This document shows, piece by piece, positions 2,954 to 33,438 of a DNA stretch of 64,000 bases (position 1 is the stretch's first letter; each line of letters begins with the position of its first letter). A program made the translations under genes and the position numbers. The stretch comes from Opitutia bacterium Tous-C4FEB. Its GTDB lineage: Bacteria; Verrucomicrobiota; Verrucomicrobiia; Opitutales; Opitutaceae. The stretch lies in NCBI GenBank assembly GCA_002304445.1, contig NEVA01000008.1, positions 53,657 to 117,656 on the forward strand, read 5' to 3'. The notes beneath the pieces are model-generated. The model searched no databases. It worked only from the letters and a program-made list of their open reading frames with translations, and was not told where the DNA came from.

Positions 2954-4657
2954 TTGCCCCGCCGCGTCCAACCGCAAACCTGCCGCCCCGTGACCGCTCT
3001 CGCCGAGAACAACGCCAACATCGCCCGCCACCTCGCGCTCATGGCCGCCGCGTCACCCGCCACCGCTGCCCTAAAGATTCCCCGCGGCCGCACCACGGCC
3101 GGCGATATCGACTACCTCACGCTCACCTTCTCCGAACTCGCCGCCGAAGTCGCCGCTTGGCAACTCCGCCTCACCACCGCCGGCGTGCAATCCGGCGACC
3201 GCACACTCCTGATGGTCCGCCAAGGCCTGCCGCTCATTGCCTCCGCCTTCGCCCTCTTCTCCCTCGGTGCCGTACCGATCGTGATCGACCCCGGCATGGG
3301 CCTCAAAAATTTCCTCGCCTGCGTCACCCGCTCCCGCCCCACCGCCCTCGTGGGCATTCCCCTCGCACGCATCCTCAGCCGCCTCTTCCGCCGCACATTT
3401 TCTTCCGTCAAGCACCGCATTCCCGCCGACAGCTCTCTCACCGCCCGCCTCACCCGCGCCAACCTCCAAAACCCGAAACCCTTGGTCGTCGCCAACCGCC
3501 AGGACTCGGATCTCGCCGCCGTATTGTTCACCAGCGGCTCCACCGGTACACCGAAAGGGGTCTGCTACGAGCACGGTCACTTCGACGCTCAGGTCCGCCT
3601 CATCCGCGCCACTTACTCGATCCAACCCGGGGAAATTGACCTGCCGCTTCTCCCGATCTTTGCCCTCTTCAATCCCGCCCTCGGGATGACCACCATCGTC
3701 CCCGAAATCGATCCCCGCCGACCCGCGGCCCTTAATCCCGCCCACCTCGTTCAGGCCATCCGCCAAGAGAACGTCACCAACTCCTTCGGCTCACCCACGC
3801 TCTGGCAAAAAATCGGCGCTCACTGCGTCGCCGAGAACATCACCCTGCCGACCATTCGCCGCATCCTCTGTGCCGGTGCCCCCGTCCCTGCCTCGCTCTG
3901 GTCCACGTCCCGCTCCTTTCTGCCCAACGGCCAACTCCACAGCCCCTACGGAGCCACCGAATCGCTTCCTCTCTCCACCATTTCCTCGGCCGAAATTGCT
4001 GACCAATCATGTGAAAAACGTCCGCCACGCCCCGGCGCCTGCGTCGGTCGCCCGGTCGCCGAGATCACCATCAAGATCATCGCCCACACCGATACTCCGC
4101 TCGCCGACCTGACCTCCGCCCGCGAACTCCCTGCCGGAGAAATCGGCGAAATCATCGCCACCGGTCCCGTCGTGACAAAATCCTACGACGCCTTGCCCGA
4201 ATCGACCGCGCTCGCAAAAATCTCCTCGCCCGGCGGCATTTATCACCGTCTCGGCGACTGCGGTTACTTCGACGACGACGGTCGACTCTGGTTTTGCGGC
4301 CGAAAAATCGAACGCGTCACGACCGCCCAAGGTCTCCTTTACACCGAACCCTGCGAGCAGATTTTCCGCGCCCATCCCCGCGCCGCCCGCTGCGCCCTGA
4401 TCGGTCTCGGCCACGCGCCCGACCAACTCCCTGCGATCGTGGTTGAAACCTCCGTGCTCGATTCGACCGAAGGCCATGCCCTCGCCCGTGAACTGCGCGA
4501 ACTCGCCCTGACCTCGCCCTCCACCGCCGCCATCAAACGCTTTTATTTCCACCCCAAGTTCCCCGTCGACGTCCGCCACAACGCCAAAATCCACCGCCTC
4601 ACACTGACGTCCTGGGCTCGCACCGCCAAAGGCTACCCGAGCGACCCCAACCGGTAG
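2954..4657 (+). CDS. AMP-dependent synthetase/ligase, OleC-like (olefin beta-lactone synthetase family candidate)
   Basis: Adenylation motif FTSGSTGTPKGV, YGATE, and a C-terminal FPVDVRHNAKIHR segment that I associate with OleC-type ligases. The start is uncertain: TTG 2954 or GTG 2990. Confidence 0.6.
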   Translation: MPRRVQPQTCRPVTALAENNANIARHLALMAAASPATAALKIPRGRTTAGDIDYLTLTFSELAAEVAAWQLRLTTAGVQSGDRTLLMVRQGLPLIASAFALFSLGAVPIVIDPGMGLKNFLACVTRSRPTALVGIPLARILSRLFRRTFSSVKHRIPADSSLTARLTRANLQNPKPLVVANRQDSDLAAVLFTSGSTGTPKGVCYEHGHFDAQVRLIRATYSIQPGEIDLPLLPIFALFNPALGMTTIVPEIDPRRPAALNPAHLVQAIRQENVTNSFGSPTLWQKIGAHCVAENITLPTIRRILCAGAPVPASLWSTSRSFLPNGQLHSPYGATESLPLSTISSAEIADQSCEKRPPRPGACVGRPVAEITIKIIAHTDTPLADLTSARELPAGEIGEIIATGPVVTKSYDALPESTALAKISSPGGIYHRLGDCGYFDDDGRLWFCGRKIERVTTAQGLLYTEPCEQIFRAHPRAARCALIGLGHAPDQLPAIVVETSVLDSTEGHALARELRELALTSPSTAAIKRFYFHPKFPVDVRHNAKIHRLTLTSWARTAKGYPSDPNR

Positions 4658-8288: not shown

Positions 8289-8422
8289 GACCTCAAGCTC
8301 CGCTAGTTTTTCCCAAAACGAAAGCTCCGAGCACGCCGAGACCTGACGCCGCAGTAAATTGCCTTACTTTTCCGCGATGATTTTTGACAGGCCTCGCCCA
8401 GCCGAGCAGAACGACGCTCAAC

Positions 8423-9061
8423 ATGAGTTTGGCCGATCTCCGCAAAGACTACACCCTCGCCGGTCTCGCCGAAAAAGACCTCGCGCGCGATCCGTTCCGC
8501 CAATTTGAAAAATGGTTTCAGGAAGCCGAAGCCGCCAAACTTGCCGAGCCCAACGCCATGACGTTGGCCACCGCCTCGCCGGACGGTCGGCCTTCCGCCC
8601 GCACCGTGCTGCTGAAGGGCCTCGATGGGCGGGGCTTTGTTTTCTATTCGAACTACGAAAGCCGCAAAGGCCGCGAGCTCACCCTCAACGCCCGCGTCGC
8701 GCTCGTCTTCCCGTGGATCGCCCTTGAACGCCAAGTCCTCATCGAAGGCACCGTCACCAAAGTCGCCCGCGAAGAAAGCGCGGCCTATTTTCACTCCAGA
8801 CCGCGCGCCAGCCAACTCGGAGCTTGGGTCGCGCAGCAAAGCTCCGTCATCCCGGGTCGCGCCACCCTCGAAGAAGCGATGAAAGCTCTGGAGAAGAAAC
8901 ACGCGGGCGCCGAAATCCCACTTCCGCCCAACTGGGGCGGCTATCGCGTGGCGCCTGAGACCATCGAGTTCTGGCAGGGCCGTCGCAGTCGTCTCCACGA
9001 TCGCCTCCGCTATCGCCGGGACCAAGAAGGGGGCTGGCTCGTCGAGCGCCTCTCTCCCTGA
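8423..9061 (+). CDS. pdxH: Pyridoxamine 5'-phosphate oxidase
   Basis: [35 protein letters not shown]...[19 protein letters not shown]...[10 protein letters not shown]...[14 protein letters not shown]. Trimmed to ATG 8423; the track start at 8384 is TTG. Confidence 0.9.
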
Positions 9062-9165
9062 TCGCGCTCCCGCTTTCCTCCCCGTTGCAAACCCCACCTC
9101 CAGTTTCGCCACTCAACGTTGCCAGACAACTGCTGGATTCCTGAACCGTTTTTTCTGTTTTCGCG

Positions 9166-9639
9166 ATGCAGCTCTACCTGATTCGTCACGCTCACGCCCT
9201 CGCCGAGGAAATCGATCCGGATCGCCCCCTCAGTCCCAAGGGACGCGCCCAAATCAAAAAGCTCGCCCGCTTCCTTCAGGCCAAATCCGCCTTCGCGCCC
9301 GCCGAGCTCTGGCACAGTCCTCTCGCCCGATCCCGCCAGACCGCCCGATTACTCGCCGGCGCCGTCTGCTCCTCCGCAAAAGTTTCCGAGATTCCCCACC
9401 TCGAACCCGAGGCCAAACCGTCCACCATCGCCGCACGTCTGAAAACGTTCCGGCGCGATCTCGCGATTGTCGGCCATGAACCCCATCTGAGCTCACTCGC
9501 GTCTCTGCTTGTTACTGGAACGGTCCGCGCCGACGTTTTTAAAATCCGTAAATCAGCGGTGCTTTGTCTCGATCGGTCCGGGCCGCAAGCGGCCTTTTGG
9601 CGCGTGCGTTGGTTGCTGGCTCCGGAGCTTTTGGATTAG
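9166..9639 (+). CDS. sixA: Phosphohistidine phosphatase SixA
   Basis: MQLYLIRHAHA... is the histidine-phosphatase RH motif. At 157 aa the size and layout are typical of SixA. Confidence 0.75.
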   Translation: MQLYLIRHAHALAEEIDPDRPLSPKGRAQIKKLARFLQAKSAFAPAELWHSPLARSRQTARLLAGAVCSSAKVSEIPHLEPEAKPSTIAARLKTFRRDLAIVGHEPHLSSLASLLVTGTVRADVFKIRKSAVLCLDRSGPQAAFWRVRWLLAPELLD

Positions 9640-11005: not shown

Positions 11006-11736
11006 CCATGAGATTGGATGTCTTACCTCATCGCACCGCAGGCGCGGCCGAAAACATGGCCAATGATTTTCTCCTGCTCCAACGTTATCCGGAATCTGCG
11101 GCTGCCCGTTTGCGCACTTATAGCTGGCGGGGATCGGCCTGGACTTTCGGTTACAGCCAGAAAATCGCGTTCGTCCGCACTCAGCTCCCTATTGCCGCCG
11201 GGCCAAATGATATCTGCCGGCGTGTGACCGGAGGCGGCGTGGTGGATCACCGCGAAGACTGGACGTATGCTCTCGTGATTCCGCGGGGCTTTGCCTTGGA
11301 AGAATTGCGGGCGAGTGAAAGCTACCGGCACGTCCACGAGTGCTTGGCGGCTGTCCTGCGAACCGCCGGCGTACCTGCAAGCGTCAAAGTAAGCTGTGAA
11401 CCTCCCACGGACGGTGAGCTCGCTTGCGGACCCGCTGGCGTCTGCTTTCAACGAGCCGAACTGTACGATATCATTAATGAAACCACCGGCCAAAAGATCG
11501 CCGGTGCCGCTCAAAAGCGTAACAAGCACGGTTTATTGTTTCAGGGCTCACTTTGGCGACCCGCCGTGGCCCCGATCACCGTCGATTGGGATAGTCTGGC
11601 CGCAACTTTTGCGACGACGCTTGCCACCATGCTGGAAGCTGAAACCGTTGAAAAACCTTGGCCCGACTTCAACGAAGACGAGCTCTCAGCTTTGGTGGAA
11701 CACTACGGCTCAACCGAGTGGATCGAGCACCGTTAA
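11002..11736 (+). CDS. Biotin/lipoate A/B protein ligase family protein (LplA/LipB catalytic-domain-like)
   Basis: 244 aa. The segments ...RTYSWRGSAWTFGYSQ...RRVTGGGVVDHREDWTYALVIP...GQKIAGAAQKR... match the BPL/LPL catalytic pattern. Confidence 0.55.
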   Translation: MTMRLDVLPHRTAGAAENMANDFLLLQRYPESAAARLRTYSWRGSAWTFGYSQKIAFVRTQLPIAAGPNDICRRVTGGGVVDHREDWTYALVIPRGFALEELRASESYRHVHECLAAVLRTAGVPASVKVSCEPPTDGELACGPAGVCFQRAELYDIINETTGQKIAGAAQKRNKHGLLFQGSLWRPAVAPITVDWDSLAATFATTLATMLEAETVEKPWPDFNEDELSALVEHYGSTEWIEHR

Positions 11737-11741
11737 ATCGA

Positions 11742-12620
11742 CTATTCGTAGCGTTGCGCCCTGCCCAGGTAGTTGAGCATCCAAATCTCCTTCCACACAC
11801 GGTAACGGCCCTCGTGGGTGATCTTGCCAAAATCTTCGCGTTCCGGGTGGGGATGGAGAAAACCCAATTCGGTGTTCAACCGGTCCAACTCATTTTGCGC
11901 GAAATTGAGATCGTTCAAAGGCTCGGTTGAAAACGAAACTGCCGTCACCTTCGCCGCCAACAGTCGCGCACGATGTCGCTCAAGCAATCGCACCAAGGAA
12001 CGGCTCCATGGACGCCGTTCAACAAACCAGTTTTCGGGATAAAAGCCGGCGAAGGGAACCGTGAGATTGTCGGTGATATAGCGCTCTCCCGCACTCGTGA
12101 TCGAAGTCAGCGTGTAGCAAAGTCCGATTGCCCCGTTGTTCTGCGGAAGAAAGGTCACCTGAACCCGCAACGTGCTCGCCGCGTCCTGATAAATTGAAAC
12201 CCGGAGATAGAGACCGCCCCCGACTTCCGCTTTGAGTGCTTGCACCTGTCGCAAGCCCTGAGCCCTGAGCCATTCCCGCACTTTCAGGAGTCGGGGCTGC
12301 ACCGGCCATTCCTCACCGGATGAATTGATCGCATAGCGTGGAAAGAGAGGCAACGGGCTTACACTCAACGCTGAAATCGCCAACCAATTGTAAAGTGTCT
12401 CCCCGAGAAACCAGATGAAGAAAAAAGCCGCGACCAACACCCAATAAGGCCGGTTAACCAGTTCGAGAAAGAGACAAAAATGTGCCGCACCAAACGAAAA
12501 AATCAGCCACCGCAACCAACGATCCGCGATCGCCAACAACGGCGATGCGTATCGAAAATTTAACTGCACAATCGCCAACGAGAGCACGATCGCCGCCAGC
12601 AACAGATATTGTACGATCAT
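11742..12620 (-). CDS. Membrane-anchored hypothetical protein
   Basis: 292 aa with about 3 N-terminal TM helices and a soluble C-terminal domain. I recognise no family. It lies in the low-G+C stretch. Confidence 0.5.
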   Translation of the reverse strand: MIVQYLLLAAIVLSLAIVQLNFRYASPLLAIADRWLRWLIFSFGAAHFCLFLELVNRPYWVLVAAFFFIWFLGETLYNWLAISALSVSPLPLFPRYAINSSGEEWPVQPRLLKVREWLRAQGLRQVQALKAEVGGGLYLRVSIYQDAASTLRVQVTFLPQNNGAIGLCYTLTSITSAGERYITDNLTVPFAGFYPENWFVERRPWSRSLVRLLERHRARLLAAKVTAVSFSTEPLNDLNFAQNELDRLNTELGFLHPHPEREDFGKITHEGRYRVWKEIWMLNYLGRAQRYE

Positions 12621-27721: not shown

Positions 27722-28552
27722 TCAAAAGACACGCGTAAGGTAGTCTCGTCCGCGAAGGCCGCGCGCCAAGGTATCGGCAACGGATTCGTTTTCCCGGGCG
27801 GACATTTCGATGATCAGTCCGCCCTCGAAACGATAACGCCGGAGTTCGCCGAGGAGCCAAGGCCAGTCGATGCTGCCTTCGCCGGGAATGAGATGGGCGT
27901 CGCGGTCACCGAGGTTGTCGTTGATGTGAACCATCCGGAGGTGGCCGGAGAGTTTGTGCACCACGGTGCCGAGGTCGCCGCTGAGCCGGGCGTGGCCGGT
28001 ATCGAGACAGGCGCCGACGGTGCAGGTGTTGATCGAGCCGAGAAGGAACATGAGGTCGCCGGTCGGGCCGAAGAGCAGGTGAGGCAACATGTTTTCAAGC
28101 TGGAGCTGAATGCCTTGTTCGCAGCAAAAGGCGGCGACCTGATTGAGTGAGACGGCCGCGTGCTGGATGCGCTGTTGAAATTCTTCGGCGGGCGGGCGGC
28201 CGGAGTGCTCGGGGCCGGGGTGCAGGACGATGTTCTCCGCGCCGAGCAAGGCGGCGGCCCGGCAAGCGACGATGAGTTCGGCCACCGCCGCGGCGCGGAT
28301 GGCGGGGTCAAGCGAGGTGATGTCGATCCGATCGGCGAACGGGGCGTGAAAGGAGTAAGGCCGGAGGCCGAGGGCGCGGATCAGTTCGCCGGCCCGGCGG
28401 ACCTCGCCCTCGCGGTGGTAGTCGAGGTGGGCGGGAAAGGAGCAGACCTCGATCGCGTCGAATCCGCTCTCGCGGATAGATTCCAGCACGGTGAAAATGC
28501 TGCGCCGGTAAAAGCAACCGGTGGACAGACCAATGGGCCAAGCCGGACTCAT
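27722..28552 (-). CDS. Xylose-isomerase-like TIM-barrel protein (AP-endonuclease-2 superfamily: sugar-phosphate isomerase/epimerase or Nfo-like)
   Basis: Metal-ligand string FHAPF, VLHPG, QLEN, CLDTGH, VHINDN..GDRDAHLIPGEGSIDW, IIEM. ATG 28552 overlaps the stop of the upstream gene (ATGA). Confidence 0.7.
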   Translation of the reverse strand: MSPAWPIGLSTGCFYRRSIFTVLESIRESGFDAIEVCSFPAHLDYHREGEVRRAGELIRALGLRPYSFHAPFADRIDITSLDPAIRAAAVAELIVACRAAALLGAENIVLHPGPEHSGRPPAEEFQQRIQHAAVSLNQVAAFCCEQGIQLQLENMLPHLLFGPTGDLMFLLGSINTCTVGACLDTGHARLSGDLGTVVHKLSGHLRMVHINDNLGDRDAHLIPGEGSIDWPWLLGELRRYRFEGGLIIEMSARENESVADTLARGLRGRDYLTRVF

Positions 28553-29949
28553 GAAAGCGAAGGAGCGAGCAGGGACCGGCGACACGGTTCGAGGTCGCAG
28601 GAGCCGTGGGCAGGCGGAAAGCAGAAGCCTTTCTCCCGGTTCGAGGTGCAGCTCAGGTCGCCGAGCTGATCAAGGCCGACGGCGATCTGGCCGGCGAACA
28701 GCCGGGTGTAGAAATCGGCGCGGAGGGCGGGCGCGTAGTCGCTCCAATCGACGCCCCAGTGGTAGGCGGGGTTTTCGAATTTTGAGCGAATGAAGCCCGC
28801 GATGTGGCGGGGATGCCAACCGGCGGCGAGCAGGCAGCGGGTGGCGAGTTGCATGCCGGCGGGTTTGAGCAGGAGATCGTTGGGCCAAGTAGCGAGGTGG
28901 CGCATGCAGGCGGGCAGCGGCTCGAGCGGGGTGCGGTCATACGTTTGGGCCCAGCGACCGGCGGCATCATGATGTTCGGCGTAGTAGTGCAGGTGAAACC
29001 GCCGCAGGGCCGAGGTGAGGTAGTCGTGGAGGAGGCGCGCGGTGCCGGCTTCTTGGATTGGAATGCGGACGCAAGCACGCTGGGCGAGGGCGCAGACCTC
29101 TGCATCGACGGAACGAAATTTGACCGCTTGCCGGGCGTCGATTTCATGCAAAGGCAGACTGTAGATCGCCGGCAACCCGGGGGCGGAGTCCACGCGGTGG
29201 GCGAGGCCAAGGAACGACGGTTTGCAATACCGGGTGAAGGGCATGCGAAGGGAGCGGGTGTGCAGCGGGTCGCCATACTCGGAGATGTCGATCGAGATGA
29301 TTTCGCGACGGCCGGTGGCGGTTGGGCCGACATGCACGGCGGTGATCTCCACGGGAATCTCGGTGACGTGCCCGGCGGCTGCTTTTTCGCGATGGGCGAG
29401 ATACTCCATCACGAGAGCGGTCGCCGCGAAGACGCCGTGGGCCCGGAGGTCGATGGATTTCCGGTGCGTTGGCGGCACCCGTTGTGCGCAGGCGTCGAGC
29501 AGTTCGGGTGCAGGGCCCAGCGCGTCGAGCAAATCAGCCGAGGGAGAGTTTCGAGCGATACTCCAGATGAAGTGATGGCCCTGCCCGGTGATGAGGTGAA
29601 GCGGGCGAATGCCCAAGCCGAGCAGGAGAGCCTCGACGGTTTGGGCTGCCGGCTCCAGTAAAGCGAACGTGCGTTCGGGATCGAGATAGGCTTGGACGGG
29701 CGAATCAAAGTTCACGTAGTCCACATCGACGTGAAAAAGGATTGATTCGGAGTCGGCCAGAGATCGGGCGATGTCCGTCCCCGCCTCGAGCAGCCGGTCA
29801 AGTTCGGCGGGGCGTCGTAAACGCGCTCGGTCGAAATTGTAGCCGTCGGTGTGGGTGAGGTAAATGGCCGTGGCGCGGTCCAACGACCCGCCCCCTAAAA
29901 ACTCAATGAGCCGATCACGCACGGCGGGATGAGCGTAGAGGGGGGACAT
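28549..29949 (-). CDS. Hypothetical protein with AEP (PriS-like) primase-polymerase motifs and a PriL-like Cys-cluster C-terminus
   Basis: 466 aa. Contains ILFHVDVDYV (DxD), LITGQGHHFIW (GxGxH), SIDISEYGDPLHTRSLRMPFTRYCK, LPACMRHL...GWHPRHIAGFIRSKF, and Cys at 434, 443, 451 and 456. The ORF is well supported. The function is inference. Confidence 0.45.
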   Translation of the reverse strand: MSPLYAHPAVRDRLIEFLGGGSLDRATAIYLTHTDGYNFDRARLRRPAELDRLLEAGTDIARSLADSESILFHVDVDYVNFDSPVQAYLDPERTFALLEPAAQTVEALLLGLGIRPLHLITGQGHHFIWSIARNSPSADLLDALGPAPELLDACAQRVPPTHRKSIDLRAHGVFAATALVMEYLAHREKAAAGHVTEIPVEITAVHVGPTATGRREIISIDISEYGDPLHTRSLRMPFTRYCKPSFLGLAHRVDSAPGLPAIYSLPLHEIDARQAVKFRSVDAEVCALAQRACVRIPIQEAGTARLLHDYLTSALRRFHLHYYAEHHDAAGRWAQTYDRTPLEPLPACMRHLATWPNDLLLKPAGMQLATRCLLAAGWHPRHIAGFIRSKFENPAYHWGVDWSDYAPALRADFYTRLFAGQIAVGLDQLGDLSCTSNREKGFCFPPAHGSCDLEPCRRSLLAPSLS

Positions 29950-30075: not shown

Positions 30076-30531
30076 TCAGGGTATGCCGTTTTCCTGCATG
30101 ACGTAGAGCGGCTCGAGTTGCGAGTAGCTGGGTTGGAGGAACGCGACCAGATCGATCAATTGTTGGACGGTCATGACCCGGTTGAACGAGCGCATGGGGG
30201 AGGTTAACAGCTTTGCTTGTTGCTCGGGTGAACGGGCGTCCGACAGGGCGAATTCGGGATGGATGATCGAGGTGAGCAGGTCACCGTAGGTGCGCATTCG
30301 GGCGACCTTTCCGCCGAGGGCCAAGGTCTTGAGTGCGGGGGCGGTCGGGGGCGGCAGATCGACGCCGGCGACCGAGTGGCAGCGGATGCATTGTAGGCTC
30401 ACGAAGGCGGCTTGACCGTTGACGGCGTTCCCTTCGGGCAGGCGAAAGGTGCGGGTGGATTTGACGTTGTCTTTGCAGCCGACGGCGAAAAGGCCGAAGG
30501 CTGCCAAGCAGACGAGGGCAACACGTTTCAT
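30076..30531 (-). CDS. Lipoprotein c-type cytochrome
   Basis: MKRVALVCLAAFGLFAVGC is a lipobox. There is a single haem motif, CIRCH, with a distal Met region (LLTSPMRSF). Confidence 0.7.
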   Translation of the reverse strand: MKRVALVCLAAFGLFAVGCKDNVKSTRTFRLPEGNAVNGQAAFVSLQCIRCHSVAGVDLPPPTAPALKTLALGGKVARMRTYGDLLTSIIHPEFALSDARSPEQQAKLLTSPMRSFNRVMTVQQLIDLVAFLQPSYSQLEPLYVMQENGIP

Positions 30532-30602: not shown

Positions 30603-30887
30603 CTAGATCGCCAAGCCGAACCGGGCTTTGACGGCAGAGGGATCGAGCACGAGCGATTCGAGCAGCATGGCTGACGCGATGCGTTCGGCGGCGATCCTTA
30701 ACAGCCGGTCGTATTGGAGGCCGACGAGGGCCACGCCGTCGTGCCGGATTTCGCCGATGCGGGCCCGGGCGACGAGCAGATGCATGAGGAAGTCTTCCGC
30801 TTCGATCGGATCGTCGGTGAAGTGCGTGCAGACAGCGTGATTATGCTGTGGATGGATCGTGTAATCGATGGCGTATTTTTTGAGCAT
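30603..30887 (-). CDS. Hypothetical 94-aa protein
   Basis: ORF MLKKYAIDYTIHPQHNHAVCTHFTDDPIEAEDFLMHLL... is co-oriented with the flanking genes. I recognise no family. Confidence 0.4.
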   Translation of the reverse strand: MLKKYAIDYTIHPQHNHAVCTHFTDDPIEAEDFLMHLLVARARIGEIRHDGVALVGLQYDRLLRIAAERIASAMLLESLVLDPSAVKARFGLAI

Positions 30888-31154: not shown

Positions 31155-31638
31155 GATTTAGGGGCGGGTTGAGAATCGGAGGTTAAGGTGGCGGTCGATT
31201 CGACCGGATCGGCCGGGGAGGGGCCGGCGAGAGAGAGCGTGGAAGTCGGGGCGTTCATCGTGGCGGGGGTGGGACCGGCTTTGGCGGGAGGGGTGGTGGT
31301 GAACGGAGTTTGGAGAGCAGTGAGGCTTTCTGTACTCTACTCTATTGGCTGAGGGATGCTCCGCTTCCTTTGCCCAAAGTGAGGCGGATCTTGGCCGCCT
31401 CTACCGGCGACGAGAGGAGGCGCCGCAGAGGTTTTGGCGGTTTTGGCGGACTTGAAATCATCGAGCCCTCGGTCTGGACCGGATGCGGAACATGCCGAGG
31501 GCGTCGCCTCGGGCAGGCGGTGAACCAACAACAAACGAGCCCCTATAAAGTGGGGGCGCGAAAGGTTTGAAGCTTGAGCTTGTGGGGTGGGCATTGGTTT
31601 GTGGGGTGTGTCGTGTTTCACCCCCATCCCACCATCCC

Positions 31639-32484
31639 ATGAGAATCGGTCTTAACTCCTTCCTTTACGCGTCTCCGTTCACCACCGAGAGCACCAAGCT
31701 CTTCGCCAAGTTCAAGAAGTGGGGCTTCGATACGGTCGAAATCCCGGTAGAAGACCCAAGTCACATCGACCCCGTGAAAGTCCGCGCGGCCGCCGAGAAA
31801 GCCGGTATCGCCATCGGTAGCATTTGCGCCTGCATGGGGCCGGGTCGCGATTTCCGTGGCTCTGATGAGGACCAGAAAGCCGGCATGGATTATTGCATGG
31901 CGCTCATCGATCAGGCCGCCGTCATGGGCTGTCCCCGCGTGATCGGTCCGATTTATTCCGTGGTCGGAAAGGCCGATGCCGTCGAGCCGGCCCAACAGAA
32001 GATCGAGTGGGCGCTCGTGGTGAAGAATCTCAAAGTCCTCGCGAAGCACGCCGAGGCCAAGGGCGTCGAGATCTGCATCGAGCCGCTCAATCGTTTCGAA
32101 ACCGATTTCCTCAACACCAGCGACCAAGGCCTGCGGCTCGTAAAGGCCGTCGGCTCGAAGGCGGTGAAGCTCCACCTCGACACTTTCCACATGAACATCG
32201 AGGAGAAGAATCAGGCCGCCGCCATCCGCAAGGTGGGCAAATTGCTGGGGCACTTTCATGCCTGCGGCAGCGACCGTGGTACGCCGGGCGGGGACCACAT
32301 CGCGTGGCCGGAAATCGTCAAAGCGCTCAAGGCGATCGGCTACAAAGGCGATGTCGTGATCGAGTCGTTTACGACCGACGTGAAGGTGATCGCCCGTGCC
32401 GCCGCCATCTGGCGCAAGATCGAGCCGAAGCGCGACGATATCGCGGTCAACGGCCTCAAGTTCCTGCGTAAAGTTCTCAAGTAA
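31639..32484 (+). CDS. Sugar phosphate isomerase/epimerase (ketose 3-epimerase-like TIM barrel)
   Basis: MRIGLNSFLY...GFDTVEIPV...ICIEPLNRFETDFLNT...LHLDTFHMNIEE...FHACGSDRGTPGGDHIAW...VVIESFT. Trimmed to ATG 31639. Confidence 0.75.
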   Translation: MRIGLNSFLYASPFTTESTKLFAKFKKWGFDTVEIPVEDPSHIDPVKVRAAAEKAGIAIGSICACMGPGRDFRGSDEDQKAGMDYCMALIDQAAVMGCPRVIGPIYSVVGKADAVEPAQQKIEWALVVKNLKVLAKHAEAKGVEICIEPLNRFETDFLNTSDQGLRLVKAVGSKAVKLHLDTFHMNIEEKNQAAAIRKVGKLLGHFHACGSDRGTPGGDHIAWPEIVKALKAIGYKGDVVIESFTTDVKVIARAAAIWRKIEPKRDDIAVNGLKFLRKVLK

Positions 32485-32517
32485 CCCCGCGCCTCCAACC
32501 TAGTCTCAAAGGCCGCG

Positions 32518-33438
32518 ATGAAACTGTCCCTGACACTTGCGTTCATTGCGGCCGTTTTTGCCGCCGGCGGCGTGCATGCAGCCGACAAAAAAATCGTGCT
32601 GATCGCCGGCAAGCCCAGCCACGGGCCGGGGGCGCATGAGCACCGTGCGGGCTGTCTATTGTTTCAAAAATGCCTCGCCGGTTTTCCGGGGGCGAACGTC
32701 GTCGTTTACGACGGCGGTTGGCCGACGAAGCAGGTGGACGGAAAAGCGGTGGACGACGACGCGGCCCTCGATGACGCGGCGGCGATCGTTTTCTACAGTG
32801 ACGGCGGCGAGAAACACCCGGCGTTGGTCGGAGACCGGTTGGCGGTGCTCGGCCGGCAGGTGAAACGCGGGGCGGGCATCGGGGCCATTCACTACGCCGT
32901 CGAGCCGACGAAAGAGAAAGGTCAGGCCGAGTGGATCGACTGGATCGGGGGCGCGTTTGAGATCCACTGGTCGGTGAATCCGCACTGGGATGGAGATTTC
33001 AAAACGTTGCCGGTACATGCGACCACGCGGGGCGTAAAACCGTTCACGACCCGCGACGAATGGTATTTCAACATGCGTTTCCGCCCGGGCATGAAAAACG
33101 TCACGCCGATCCTCGAGGCAGTGCCGCCGGCCGACACCATGAGCCGGCCGGATGGCAAGCACTCGGGCAATCCCGCGGTGCGCGAACAGGTCGCCAAAAA
33201 GGTGCCGCAAACGGTGATGTGGACTTCCGAGAATGAGGCCGGCGGCCGTGGATTCGGGTTTACAGGCGGACACTTTCACGCGAGCTGGCAAAAGGAAGAC
33301 CAGCGCAAACTCATGCTCAACGCGATCGTCTGGCTGGCGCATCTCGAAGTGCCGGCGGGTGGGGTGGTCTCGAGCGTGAGCGGCGCGGAGATTGCGGCGA
33401 ATCTCGATCCGAAGCCCGCGCCGAAGAAAAAGTCTTAG
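32518..33438 (+). CDS. ThuA-domain protein (secreted)
   Basis: Signal MKLSLTLAFIAAVFAAGGVHA, then KKIVLIAGKPSHGPGAHEH...DEWYFNMRF...VMWTSENE... matches the ThuA-like pattern. Confidence 0.7.
   Translation: MKLSLTLAFIAAVFAAGGVHAADKKIVLIAGKPSHGPGAHEHRAGCLLFQKCLAGFPGANVVVYDGGWPTKQVDGKAVDDDAALDDAAAIVFYSDGGEKHPALVGDRLAVLGRQVKRGAGIGAIHYAVEPTKEKGQAEWIDWIGGAFEIHWSVNPHWDGDFKTLPVHATTRGVKPFTTRDEWYFNMRFRPGMKNVTPILEAVPPADTMSRPDGKHSGNPAVREQVAKKVPQTVMWTSENEAGGRGFGFTGGHFHASWQKEDQRKLMLNAIVWLAHLEVPAGGVVSSVSGAEIAANLDPKPAPKKKS

Follow-up and report, generated by a model that had tools for sequence, protein, structure and literature searches.

Bacterial PolX-PHP proteins join a small repair polymerase to a phosphoesterase that has three metal ions, cleans 3' ends and acts as an apurinic/apyrimidinic (AP) endonuclease, and LigD (POL-PE-LIG) joins a polymerase domain of the AEP (primase-polymerase) superfamily to a 3'-phosphoesterase domain. 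In mycobacteria, the AEP Prim-PolC fills short gaps with ribonucleoside triphosphates (rNTPs) after EndoIV has removed a 3'-phosphate, in stationary phase (PMC5663958). Here we describe two overlapping genes on the minus strand of a 64,000-nt stretch of DNA from Opitutia bacterium Tous-C4FEB (contig NEVA01000008.1; the whole stretch that was analysed is hereafter the window). The first gene (28549..29949) encodes a 466-aa protein that fold matches and motifs I-III place in an undescribed family of the primase-polymerase superfamily. The second (27722..28552) encodes a 276-aa candidate TIM-barrel metallo-phosphoesterase of family PF01261, of MJ1311 type and with the trinuclear ligand set of endonuclease IV. 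We estimate a probability of roughly 45% that the two form a conserved two-enzyme machine, fused in some genomes, that processes and extends nucleic-acid ends. In the literature searched, we found no paper that connects an AEP with an enzyme of PF01261 or of TIM-barrel fold.

The two genes share four nucleotides (28549..28552). Read on the minus strand, the ATG of the barrel gene (28552-28550) and the TGA of the AEP-like gene (28551-28549) form a single ATGA within cgctttcATGAgtccg, so the overlap claimed in a first-pass annotation of this DNA is correct, and both its sequence and its recurrence in related loci mark it as a site of translational coupling. A longer, GTG-initiated version of the barrel open reading frame (ORF) is also present (27722..28585); we take the ATG to be the conserved start because the identical start/stop overlap recurs in related genomes. 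Scanning for promoters and terminators around the operon gave one weak promoter-like site, within the AEP-like gene, and no terminator, and an Rfam scan of the window returned no match.

When one genome per species was scanned, 210 species were found to have a relative, and the best 80 loci, all from Verrucomicrobiota, were analysed; the window itself is ~94% identical to an Opitutaceae metagenome-assembled genome (MAG). The barrel gene lies immediately downstream of the AEP-like gene in 76 of the 80 loci; of the other four, two are cut off by the end of a contig, one has the order reversed and one is a second AEP-like copy that stands alone. The 4-nt ATGA overlap is found in 56 of the 76 paired loci and an overlap of 8 nt (ATGnnTGA) in 14, and in 2 both proteins are encoded by one fused ORF, a frequency of overlap far above that of chance adjacency. 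Fusion is also found in 23 of the 120 best protein clusters (745-777 aa), where the C-terminus of the AEP-like part joins the N-terminus of the barrel directly with no added linker, and one fusion of identical sequence is present on 14 contigs. More distant members (25-35% identity) also have a PF01261 gene as partner, with overlaps of 1-4 nt at four loci (L082, L086, L087 and L089 in our numbering), a 47-nt gap at two (L084 and L085) and, at L083, a reversed order in which the barrel gene lies upstream of the AEP-like gene and overlaps it. A second and more diverse set comprised 87 loci (79 from metagenomes and 8 from look-up), 75 of which had room for a neighbour. In 41 of these 75 a barrel gene was encoded on the same strand at a distance of up to ~1.4 kb, and in 2 a different partner, a DHH/DHHA1 protein, stands instead of the barrel. 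The coupling and functional link that had been proposed from the window alone are thus borne out by conserved overlaps, by fusions and by co-occurrence across phyla, and the pair is clearly conserved beyond this genome.

The AEP-like protein could not be placed by sequence search. Neither as a single sequence nor as a profile did the whole protein match anything in Pfam, NCBIfam or the PDB sequences (E<=0.01), and its separate domains at E<=1 returned only a sub-threshold, non-AEP model, PF07286 (14.5 bits; cut-off 25); distant members of the family likewise matched no AEP family model. An AlphaFold model built from 39 homologues (pLDDT 86, pTM 0.90) was compared by Foldseek, and its best PDB folds were exclusively AEPs: Prim-PolC of the mycobacterial LigC excision-repair complex, which is the best match, LigD-Pol, the CRISPR-associated Prim-Pol CAPP, RepB' and the pRN1 primase, with probabilities up to 1.00 and target-normalised TM scores of 0.36-0.53.

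The catalytic motifs of the superfamily are found at the expected secondary-structure elements of the model. Motif I, D75-V-D77 (29719..29727, minus strand; D-x-E in most homologues), lies on beta strand 69-80, and its D75 is invariant in close homologues and kept in 90% or more of the broad family, as aligned at 25-46% identity. Motif II, T121-G-Q-G-H-H126 (29572..29589, minus strand), lies in a beta hairpin (strand 117-132) and is invariant in close homologues, and motif III, S219-I-D221-I-S-E-Y-G-D227 (29269..29295, minus strand), has D221 at the end of strand 216-221. In the broad family G124, D221, R232, R235, C348, C434 and C443 are invariant, H126 is kept in at least 90% and the position of C451 is nearly always Cys. 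These four cysteines belong to an all-helical domain (residues 270-466) that has no counterpart in Prim-PolC or LigD-Pol, and the part that carries them (28597..28908, minus strand) holds a candidate metal or Fe-S site. HMMER detects no sequence similarity of the protein to Prim-PolC or LigD. The earlier label 'AEP-like' is upheld by a model that matches AEPs only and by the conservation of motifs I-III, and fold and motifs together support the prediction that this is a new family within the AEP superfamily. Clustering at 50% leaves 614 representatives of the family; its named members, all annotated as 'hypothetical', belong to Verrucomicrobiota, Elusimicrobiota and Riflebacteria. One 612-aa member (P0347) carries an N-terminal CBS pair (Pfam E 3.5e-23), a domain combination that suggests adenine-nucleotide sensing.

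The barrel protein scores 124.6 bits to Pfam PF01261 (AP_endonuc_2; E 7e-36, gathering cut-off 31.1), over model positions 2-240 of 249. This agrees with the first-pass assignment to the xylose isomerase-like TIM-barrel superfamily, and the strings quoted in its support (FHAPF, VLHPG, QLEN, CLDTGH, VHINDNLGDRDAHLIPGEGSIDW and IIEM) are all present in the 276-aa product. Nine metal ligands, H69, H111, E153, D184, H187, H209, D218, H220 and E249 (codons within 27806..28348, minus strand), are invariant among 37 barrel homologues and are mostly kept in the barrel partners of distant clades. In a profile alignment to E. coli Nfo (endonuclease IV; reference sequence b2159, from NC_000913), the ligands are paired with Nfo H109, E145, D179, H182, H216, D229, H231 and E261, and H69 sits in a HAPF motif that HMMER alignments pair with the HAPY of endonucleases IV; the ninth ligand of the E. 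coli trinuclear centre is likewise an H69. Because all nine are invariant and Nfo-aligned, the barrel has the complete three-metal ligand set of Nfo, and the Nfo-like pattern to which the first-pass annotation pointed is upheld. The single-metal isomerase pattern consists of E, D, H and E alone, to which the barrel adds H69, H111, D218 and H220. The window offers an internal contrast: a second PF01261 protein (31567..32484, plus strand) has isomerase-type ligands only, and the same alignment shows no equivalents of H69, H111, H209, D218 and H220 in it.

The placement of the barrel in the Nfo clade, which the first-pass annotation had considered, did not hold. Three NCBIfam Nfo models (including TIGR00587 and PRK01060) scored 24.0 bits against a cut-off of 129.65, 31.3 against 244 and 19.4 against 333, and the barrel reached no curated NCBIfam family threshold. 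The nearest relatives are instead MJ1311 of M. jannaschii (PDB 3WQO, 'D-tagatose 3-epimerase-like protein') and TTHB071 of T. thermophilus (PDB 3AYT). When the barrel profile was compared with PDB sequences, MJ1311 was matched with E 1.4e-22, followed by TTHB071 (6e-11), M. tuberculosis endonuclease IV (5ZHZ; 9e-11), other endonucleases IV (2e-8 to 6e-8) and D-tagatose 3-epimerases (9e-8). MJ1311 is also the closest fold to the confident barrel model (pLDDT 94; Foldseek TM 0.85) and shares with the barrel the nine ligands and the HAPF, HPG, LEN, DxGH, HxxDN, DxH, GEG and E motifs, at an identity of only ~26%. It has been listed as a predicted EndoIV homologue of M. jannaschii (PMC2770678). MJ1311 and TTHB071 name a clade and not a function, because both are functionally uncharacterised. 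Judged from sequence and model, the barrel is predicted to be an MJ1311-type protein with Nfo metal chemistry on an epimerase-like scaffold, and not an Nfo orthologue. With endonucleases IV it shares the PF01261 barrel, the nine ligands and HAP[YF] after beta 3; unlike the barrel, Nfo is neither translationally coupled nor fused to a polymerase.

A different enzyme can occupy the place of the barrel. In the two metagenome loci with another partner (L088, 7428-8516, and L090, 5422-6507), the gene directly after the AEP-like gene encodes a 362-aa divergent DHH/DHHA1 phosphoesterase with all motifs of that family (DFD, D, DHH and GGGGH), matched by Pfam DHH (E 1e-4) and by the PHROG 'DHH phosphoesterase' (E 2e-6); comparison with the PDB gave no informative sequence match. 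Because a nucleic-acid or nucleotide phosphoesterase of unrelated fold takes the same slot, the job of the partner is suggested to be phosphoester hydrolysis and not sugar isomerisation.

Apart from the pair itself, neighbourhoods are not conserved, and one neighbour bears on the likely substrate. In seven Verrucomicrobiaceae loci, the pair is followed on the same strand by a gene for a ~284-aa protein made up of the 8-kDa and fingers helix-hairpin-helix (HhH) modules of PolX, with an unassigned C-terminal part of ~110 aa and no palm, thumb or PHP domain (Pfam HHH_8 E 5e-17; match to T. thermophilus PolX residues 2-170, E 4e-20). The gene comes directly after the barrel gene in three loci and after a P-type (P2-type) ATPase gene in four; its coordinates are 4074-4925 in L005, 8288-9136 in L024, ~8280-9131 in L013, 10952-11806 in L020, 10940-11812 in L026, 10939-11877 in L065 and 6150-7355 in L007. 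Such a stand-alone PolX-type module favours a DNA gap as the substrate of the pair. The idea of a DNA gap-repair or priming module, raised in the first-pass annotation, gains some support from context.

The analysis shows the two folds, the conservation of the catalytic residues, an obligate pairing that extends to fusion, and the substitution of a DHH/DHHA1 enzyme for the barrel. From these we infer the substrate (among DNA, RNA and nucleotides), the order of the reactions and the physiological setting as follows. The AEP-like protein would be a very divergent nucleotidyltransferase with a catalytic Asp/Glu triad and an NTP-binding His, and the barrel, with its endonuclease IV trinuclear centre on an MJ1311-type scaffold, would act as a phosphoesterase. 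The barrel would first remove a 3' block (a 3'-phosphate, 3'-phosphoglycolate or unsaturated aldehyde) or incise beside a damaged residue, leaving a 3'-OH; this is the chemistry that Nfo provides as a 3'-phosphatase and diesterase. The AEP enzyme would then extend the end or fill a short gap, probably with ribonucleotides, and a separate ligase would seal the nick. The most likely setting would be DNA repair in non-growing or stressed cells, and stress- or dormancy-type neighbours, together with the CBS pair of one family member, are a hint in that direction. By analogy, this mechanism would find its precedents in PolX-PHP, in the POL and PE domains of LigD and in the action of Prim-PolC after EndoIV. 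The PolX-PHP proteins of T. thermophilus (3B0X) and B. subtilis would follow the same logic with unrelated folds, a Pol beta-type palm and a PHP domain standing where an AEP and a PF01261 TIM barrel stand here. The Prim-PolC and LigD systems differ in their linked ligase or Ku, not seen here, and in the fold of LigD-PE, which is not that of the barrel. A fuller version of this reading, which we put forward tentatively and at somewhat under even odds, is that Verrucomicrobiota, Elusimicrobiota, Riflebacteria and some archaea possess a self-contained repair or priming machine, made of a new AEP family whose four invariant cysteines, in the helical C-terminal domain, bind a metal or an Fe-S cluster (as in PriL of the eukaryotic primase) and a trinuclear barrel of MJ1311 type.

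Several observations weigh against a machine that processes and extends ends. Support for the AEP fold is consistent but moderate because the Foldseek E-values are weak (about 3e-3 to 7e-3). On the side of the barrel, ketose 3-epimerases match the model about as well as MJ1311 does (TM 0.75-0.85). An Nfo-type overall architecture was not found: the 50 best Foldseek matches include no Nfo structure, and hhalign covers only residues 81-263 of Nfo, leaving its N-terminal third, with the DNA-recognition loops, unaligned to the barrel. The crystal structure of MJ1311 reportedly shows nine conserved Zn ligands, a narrowed cleft and no DNA-binding groove. No ligase or Ku gene is among the conserved neighbours (167 loci) or in the Pfam-annotated contexts, and the association with the HhH protein is limited to one family, the Verrucomicrobiaceae. 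Genes for a universal stress protein (USP), a P-type ATPase, an AAA_33 kinase-like or a PpsA-like protein lie near the pair in only about a quarter of the Verrucomicrobiota loci (22/80), and no LexA-type box (which we take to be TGTTC-N4-GAACA) occurs within 300 nt upstream in 77 loci. Finally, at least 12 of the 75 loci of the second set, all from a single clade, carry two AEP-like paralogues in tandem but lack a barrel gene within 4 kb, so not every AEP-like member needs the barrel.

Among the alternatives, RNA 3'-end repair survives best, and we regard it as possible but unlikely. The phosphoesterase would remove 2',3'-cyclic phosphates or 3'-phosphates from damaged tRNA or rRNA, and the AEP-like enzyme would rebuild the end. 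That a DHH/DHHA1 phosphoesterase can stand in for the barrel and that one AEP-like representative has an N-terminal CBS pair fit such a role, which would have its parallel in those CCA-adding enzymes that carry HD or DHH-CBS-DHHA1 phosphoesterase modules; moreover, AEPs commonly use rNTPs. Among the neighbours, hisS lies directly downstream of the pair in ~14 loci (with aspS in L084), a ribosome hibernation factor gene is found near the pair in L087, and a gene for a beta-CASP RNase J-like protein comes after the pair on an archaeal-type contig. The hisS/aspS synteny, however, occurs in a single clade only and might reflect an inherited gene order. The best structural matches of the AEP-like protein are DNA-repair AEPs, the HhH protein linked in seven loci is of the PolX type that binds DNA gaps, and neither an RNA ligase (RtcB) nor a kinase or Hen1-type partner was seen.

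Small-molecule metabolism we consider rather improbable. Here the barrel would hydrolyse or isomerise a sugar-phosphate or a nucleotide metabolite, and the AEP-like protein would add a nucleotidyl group to that metabolite or take one from it, instead of acting on a polynucleotide. To our knowledge, all AEP-fold enzymes act on nucleic acids, which counts against this reading. In its favour, the barrel is in global fold no closer to any other group than to ketose epimerases, MJ1311 reportedly lacks a DNA groove, and both proteins are mildly acidic overall; the nine trinuclear ligands are nevertheless kept, where isomerases keep four or five, and the GGGH motif of the replacement DHHA1-type enzyme is usual in enzymes that act on nucleic acids or nucleotides. 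The best NCBIfam score of the barrel is to CbiR, which in Akkermansia muciniphila is a cobamide-remodelling phosphodiesterase, and thus neither an isomerase nor an enzyme of DNA, in the same superfamily (PMC7733943). This score (46.6 bits) is far below the cut-off of 105, and CbiR has no AEP partner. Cobamide genes were absent from every neighbourhood examined, and no sugar-transport or sugar-kinase gene is conserved beside the pair. With the barrel below the cut-off and no cobamide gene context, CbiR-type cobamide remodelling was rejected.

A replicative primase of a mobile element, or an anti-phage defence gene, with the barrel as accessory nuclease, is very unlikely. Mobile elements do encode many of the bacterial AEPs, the best viral folds (BFVD) that Foldseek found for the AEP-like model are phage AEP primase-helicases, and the helical, cysteine-bearing C-terminal domain may recall primase accessory domains. 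In both locus sets, however, no helicase, integrase, Rep or phage gene, nor any other mobile-element gene, is conserved near the pair, and its neighbours are ordinary, variable chromosomal genes; in this respect the AEP-like protein is more like repair AEPs than replicative ones. PADLOC and PHROGs gave no match for either gene of the window, and the AEP-like proteins of different Verrucomicrobiota classes are 50-68% identical, which has the look of a vertically kept cellular gene. An ordinary sugar isomerase or epimerase that merely adjoins an unrelated gene, for which speak the source annotation ('sugar phosphate isomerase/epimerase') and the prominence of epimerases among the fold matches, is effectively refuted by the conserved overlaps, fusions and cross-phylum pairing, by the full trinuclear ligand set and by epimerase and isomerase NCBIfam scores of 17-39 bits against cut-offs of 290-447 (fructoselysine 3-epimerase 39 against 305, psicose 3-epimerase 22 against 300, IolE 34 against 290 and xylose isomerase 22 against 447).

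The remaining observations concern variants of the pair and its surroundings. The reversed order is found at L083 (4857-7626) and also at L152, L153 and L160, where a longer, 390-aa barrel is encoded upstream and the gene for the beta-CASP RNase J-like protein follows; the L083 barrel is without an equivalent of D218, and its contig is of archaeal type because Sec61-beta and NAC genes are in its context. At the metagenome loci with tandem AEP-like paralogues (L094-L096, L101, L102, L104, L108-L110, L114, L121 and L124), motif II of the second copy has changed from MTGQGYHF to NDSTSSGYHF, and motifs I and III and the cysteines are kept; the tandem copies may be a heterodimeric version. A second, lone AEP-like copy, with no barrel gene within 6 kb, is present at L073 (6001-7377; same MAG as L060), and upstream of it are USP and sensor-kinase genes and a homologue of a 94-aa ORF of the window. 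This ORF (30603..30887, minus strand), which matches no family in Pfam or NCBIfam, lies two genes upstream of the pair and is loosely associated with it, having a homologue no more than 6 kb away in 7 of the 80 Verrucomicrobiota loci, L073 included. A gene for a small c-type cytochrome (30076..30531, minus strand; Pfam Cytochrom_C E 1e-5) precedes the AEP-like gene by 126 nt on that strand; only L001 and L036, the two closest Opitutaceae loci, keep it at this position. The second PF01261 gene of the window is followed by a gene for a 306-aa secreted protein that appears ThuA-like by eye, and this plus-strand gene pair (31567-33438) is also kept in the closest Opitutaceae loci.

Three USP genes, the hibernation factor (HPF) gene and a nitroreductase gene lie beside the pair in L087 (2656-5992 and 12737-13443), and L089 has genes for a USP, a globin and a GAF sensor kinase near it (3985-4395, 8333-9337 and 11267-12316). 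The AAA_33/APH-like kinase found near the pair presumably resembles Rv2004c. With no LexA-type box in the upstream regions of the 77 loci, SOS regulation was rejected as an explanation of how the genes are controlled, and no shared upstream k-mer stands out.

If the pair is what we propose, a large primase-polymerase family (614 clusters at 50% identity) would have gone undescribed, and it would be cellular and not borne by mobile elements. The partnership gives a first functional clue for the MJ1311/TTHB071 clade, which has been unexplained since the structures were solved, and a confirmed role would be the first function for these two orphans. The logic of PolX-PHP would have been rebuilt from unrelated folds, as a third independent design, after PolX-PHP and the POL-PE of LigD, that combines a small repair polymerase with a metal-dependent phosphoesterase. 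The natural fusions are single-chain versions of the pair and well suited to biochemistry. For the environmentally abundant phyla that carry these genes, which are hard to study genetically, the pair would point to a repair route.

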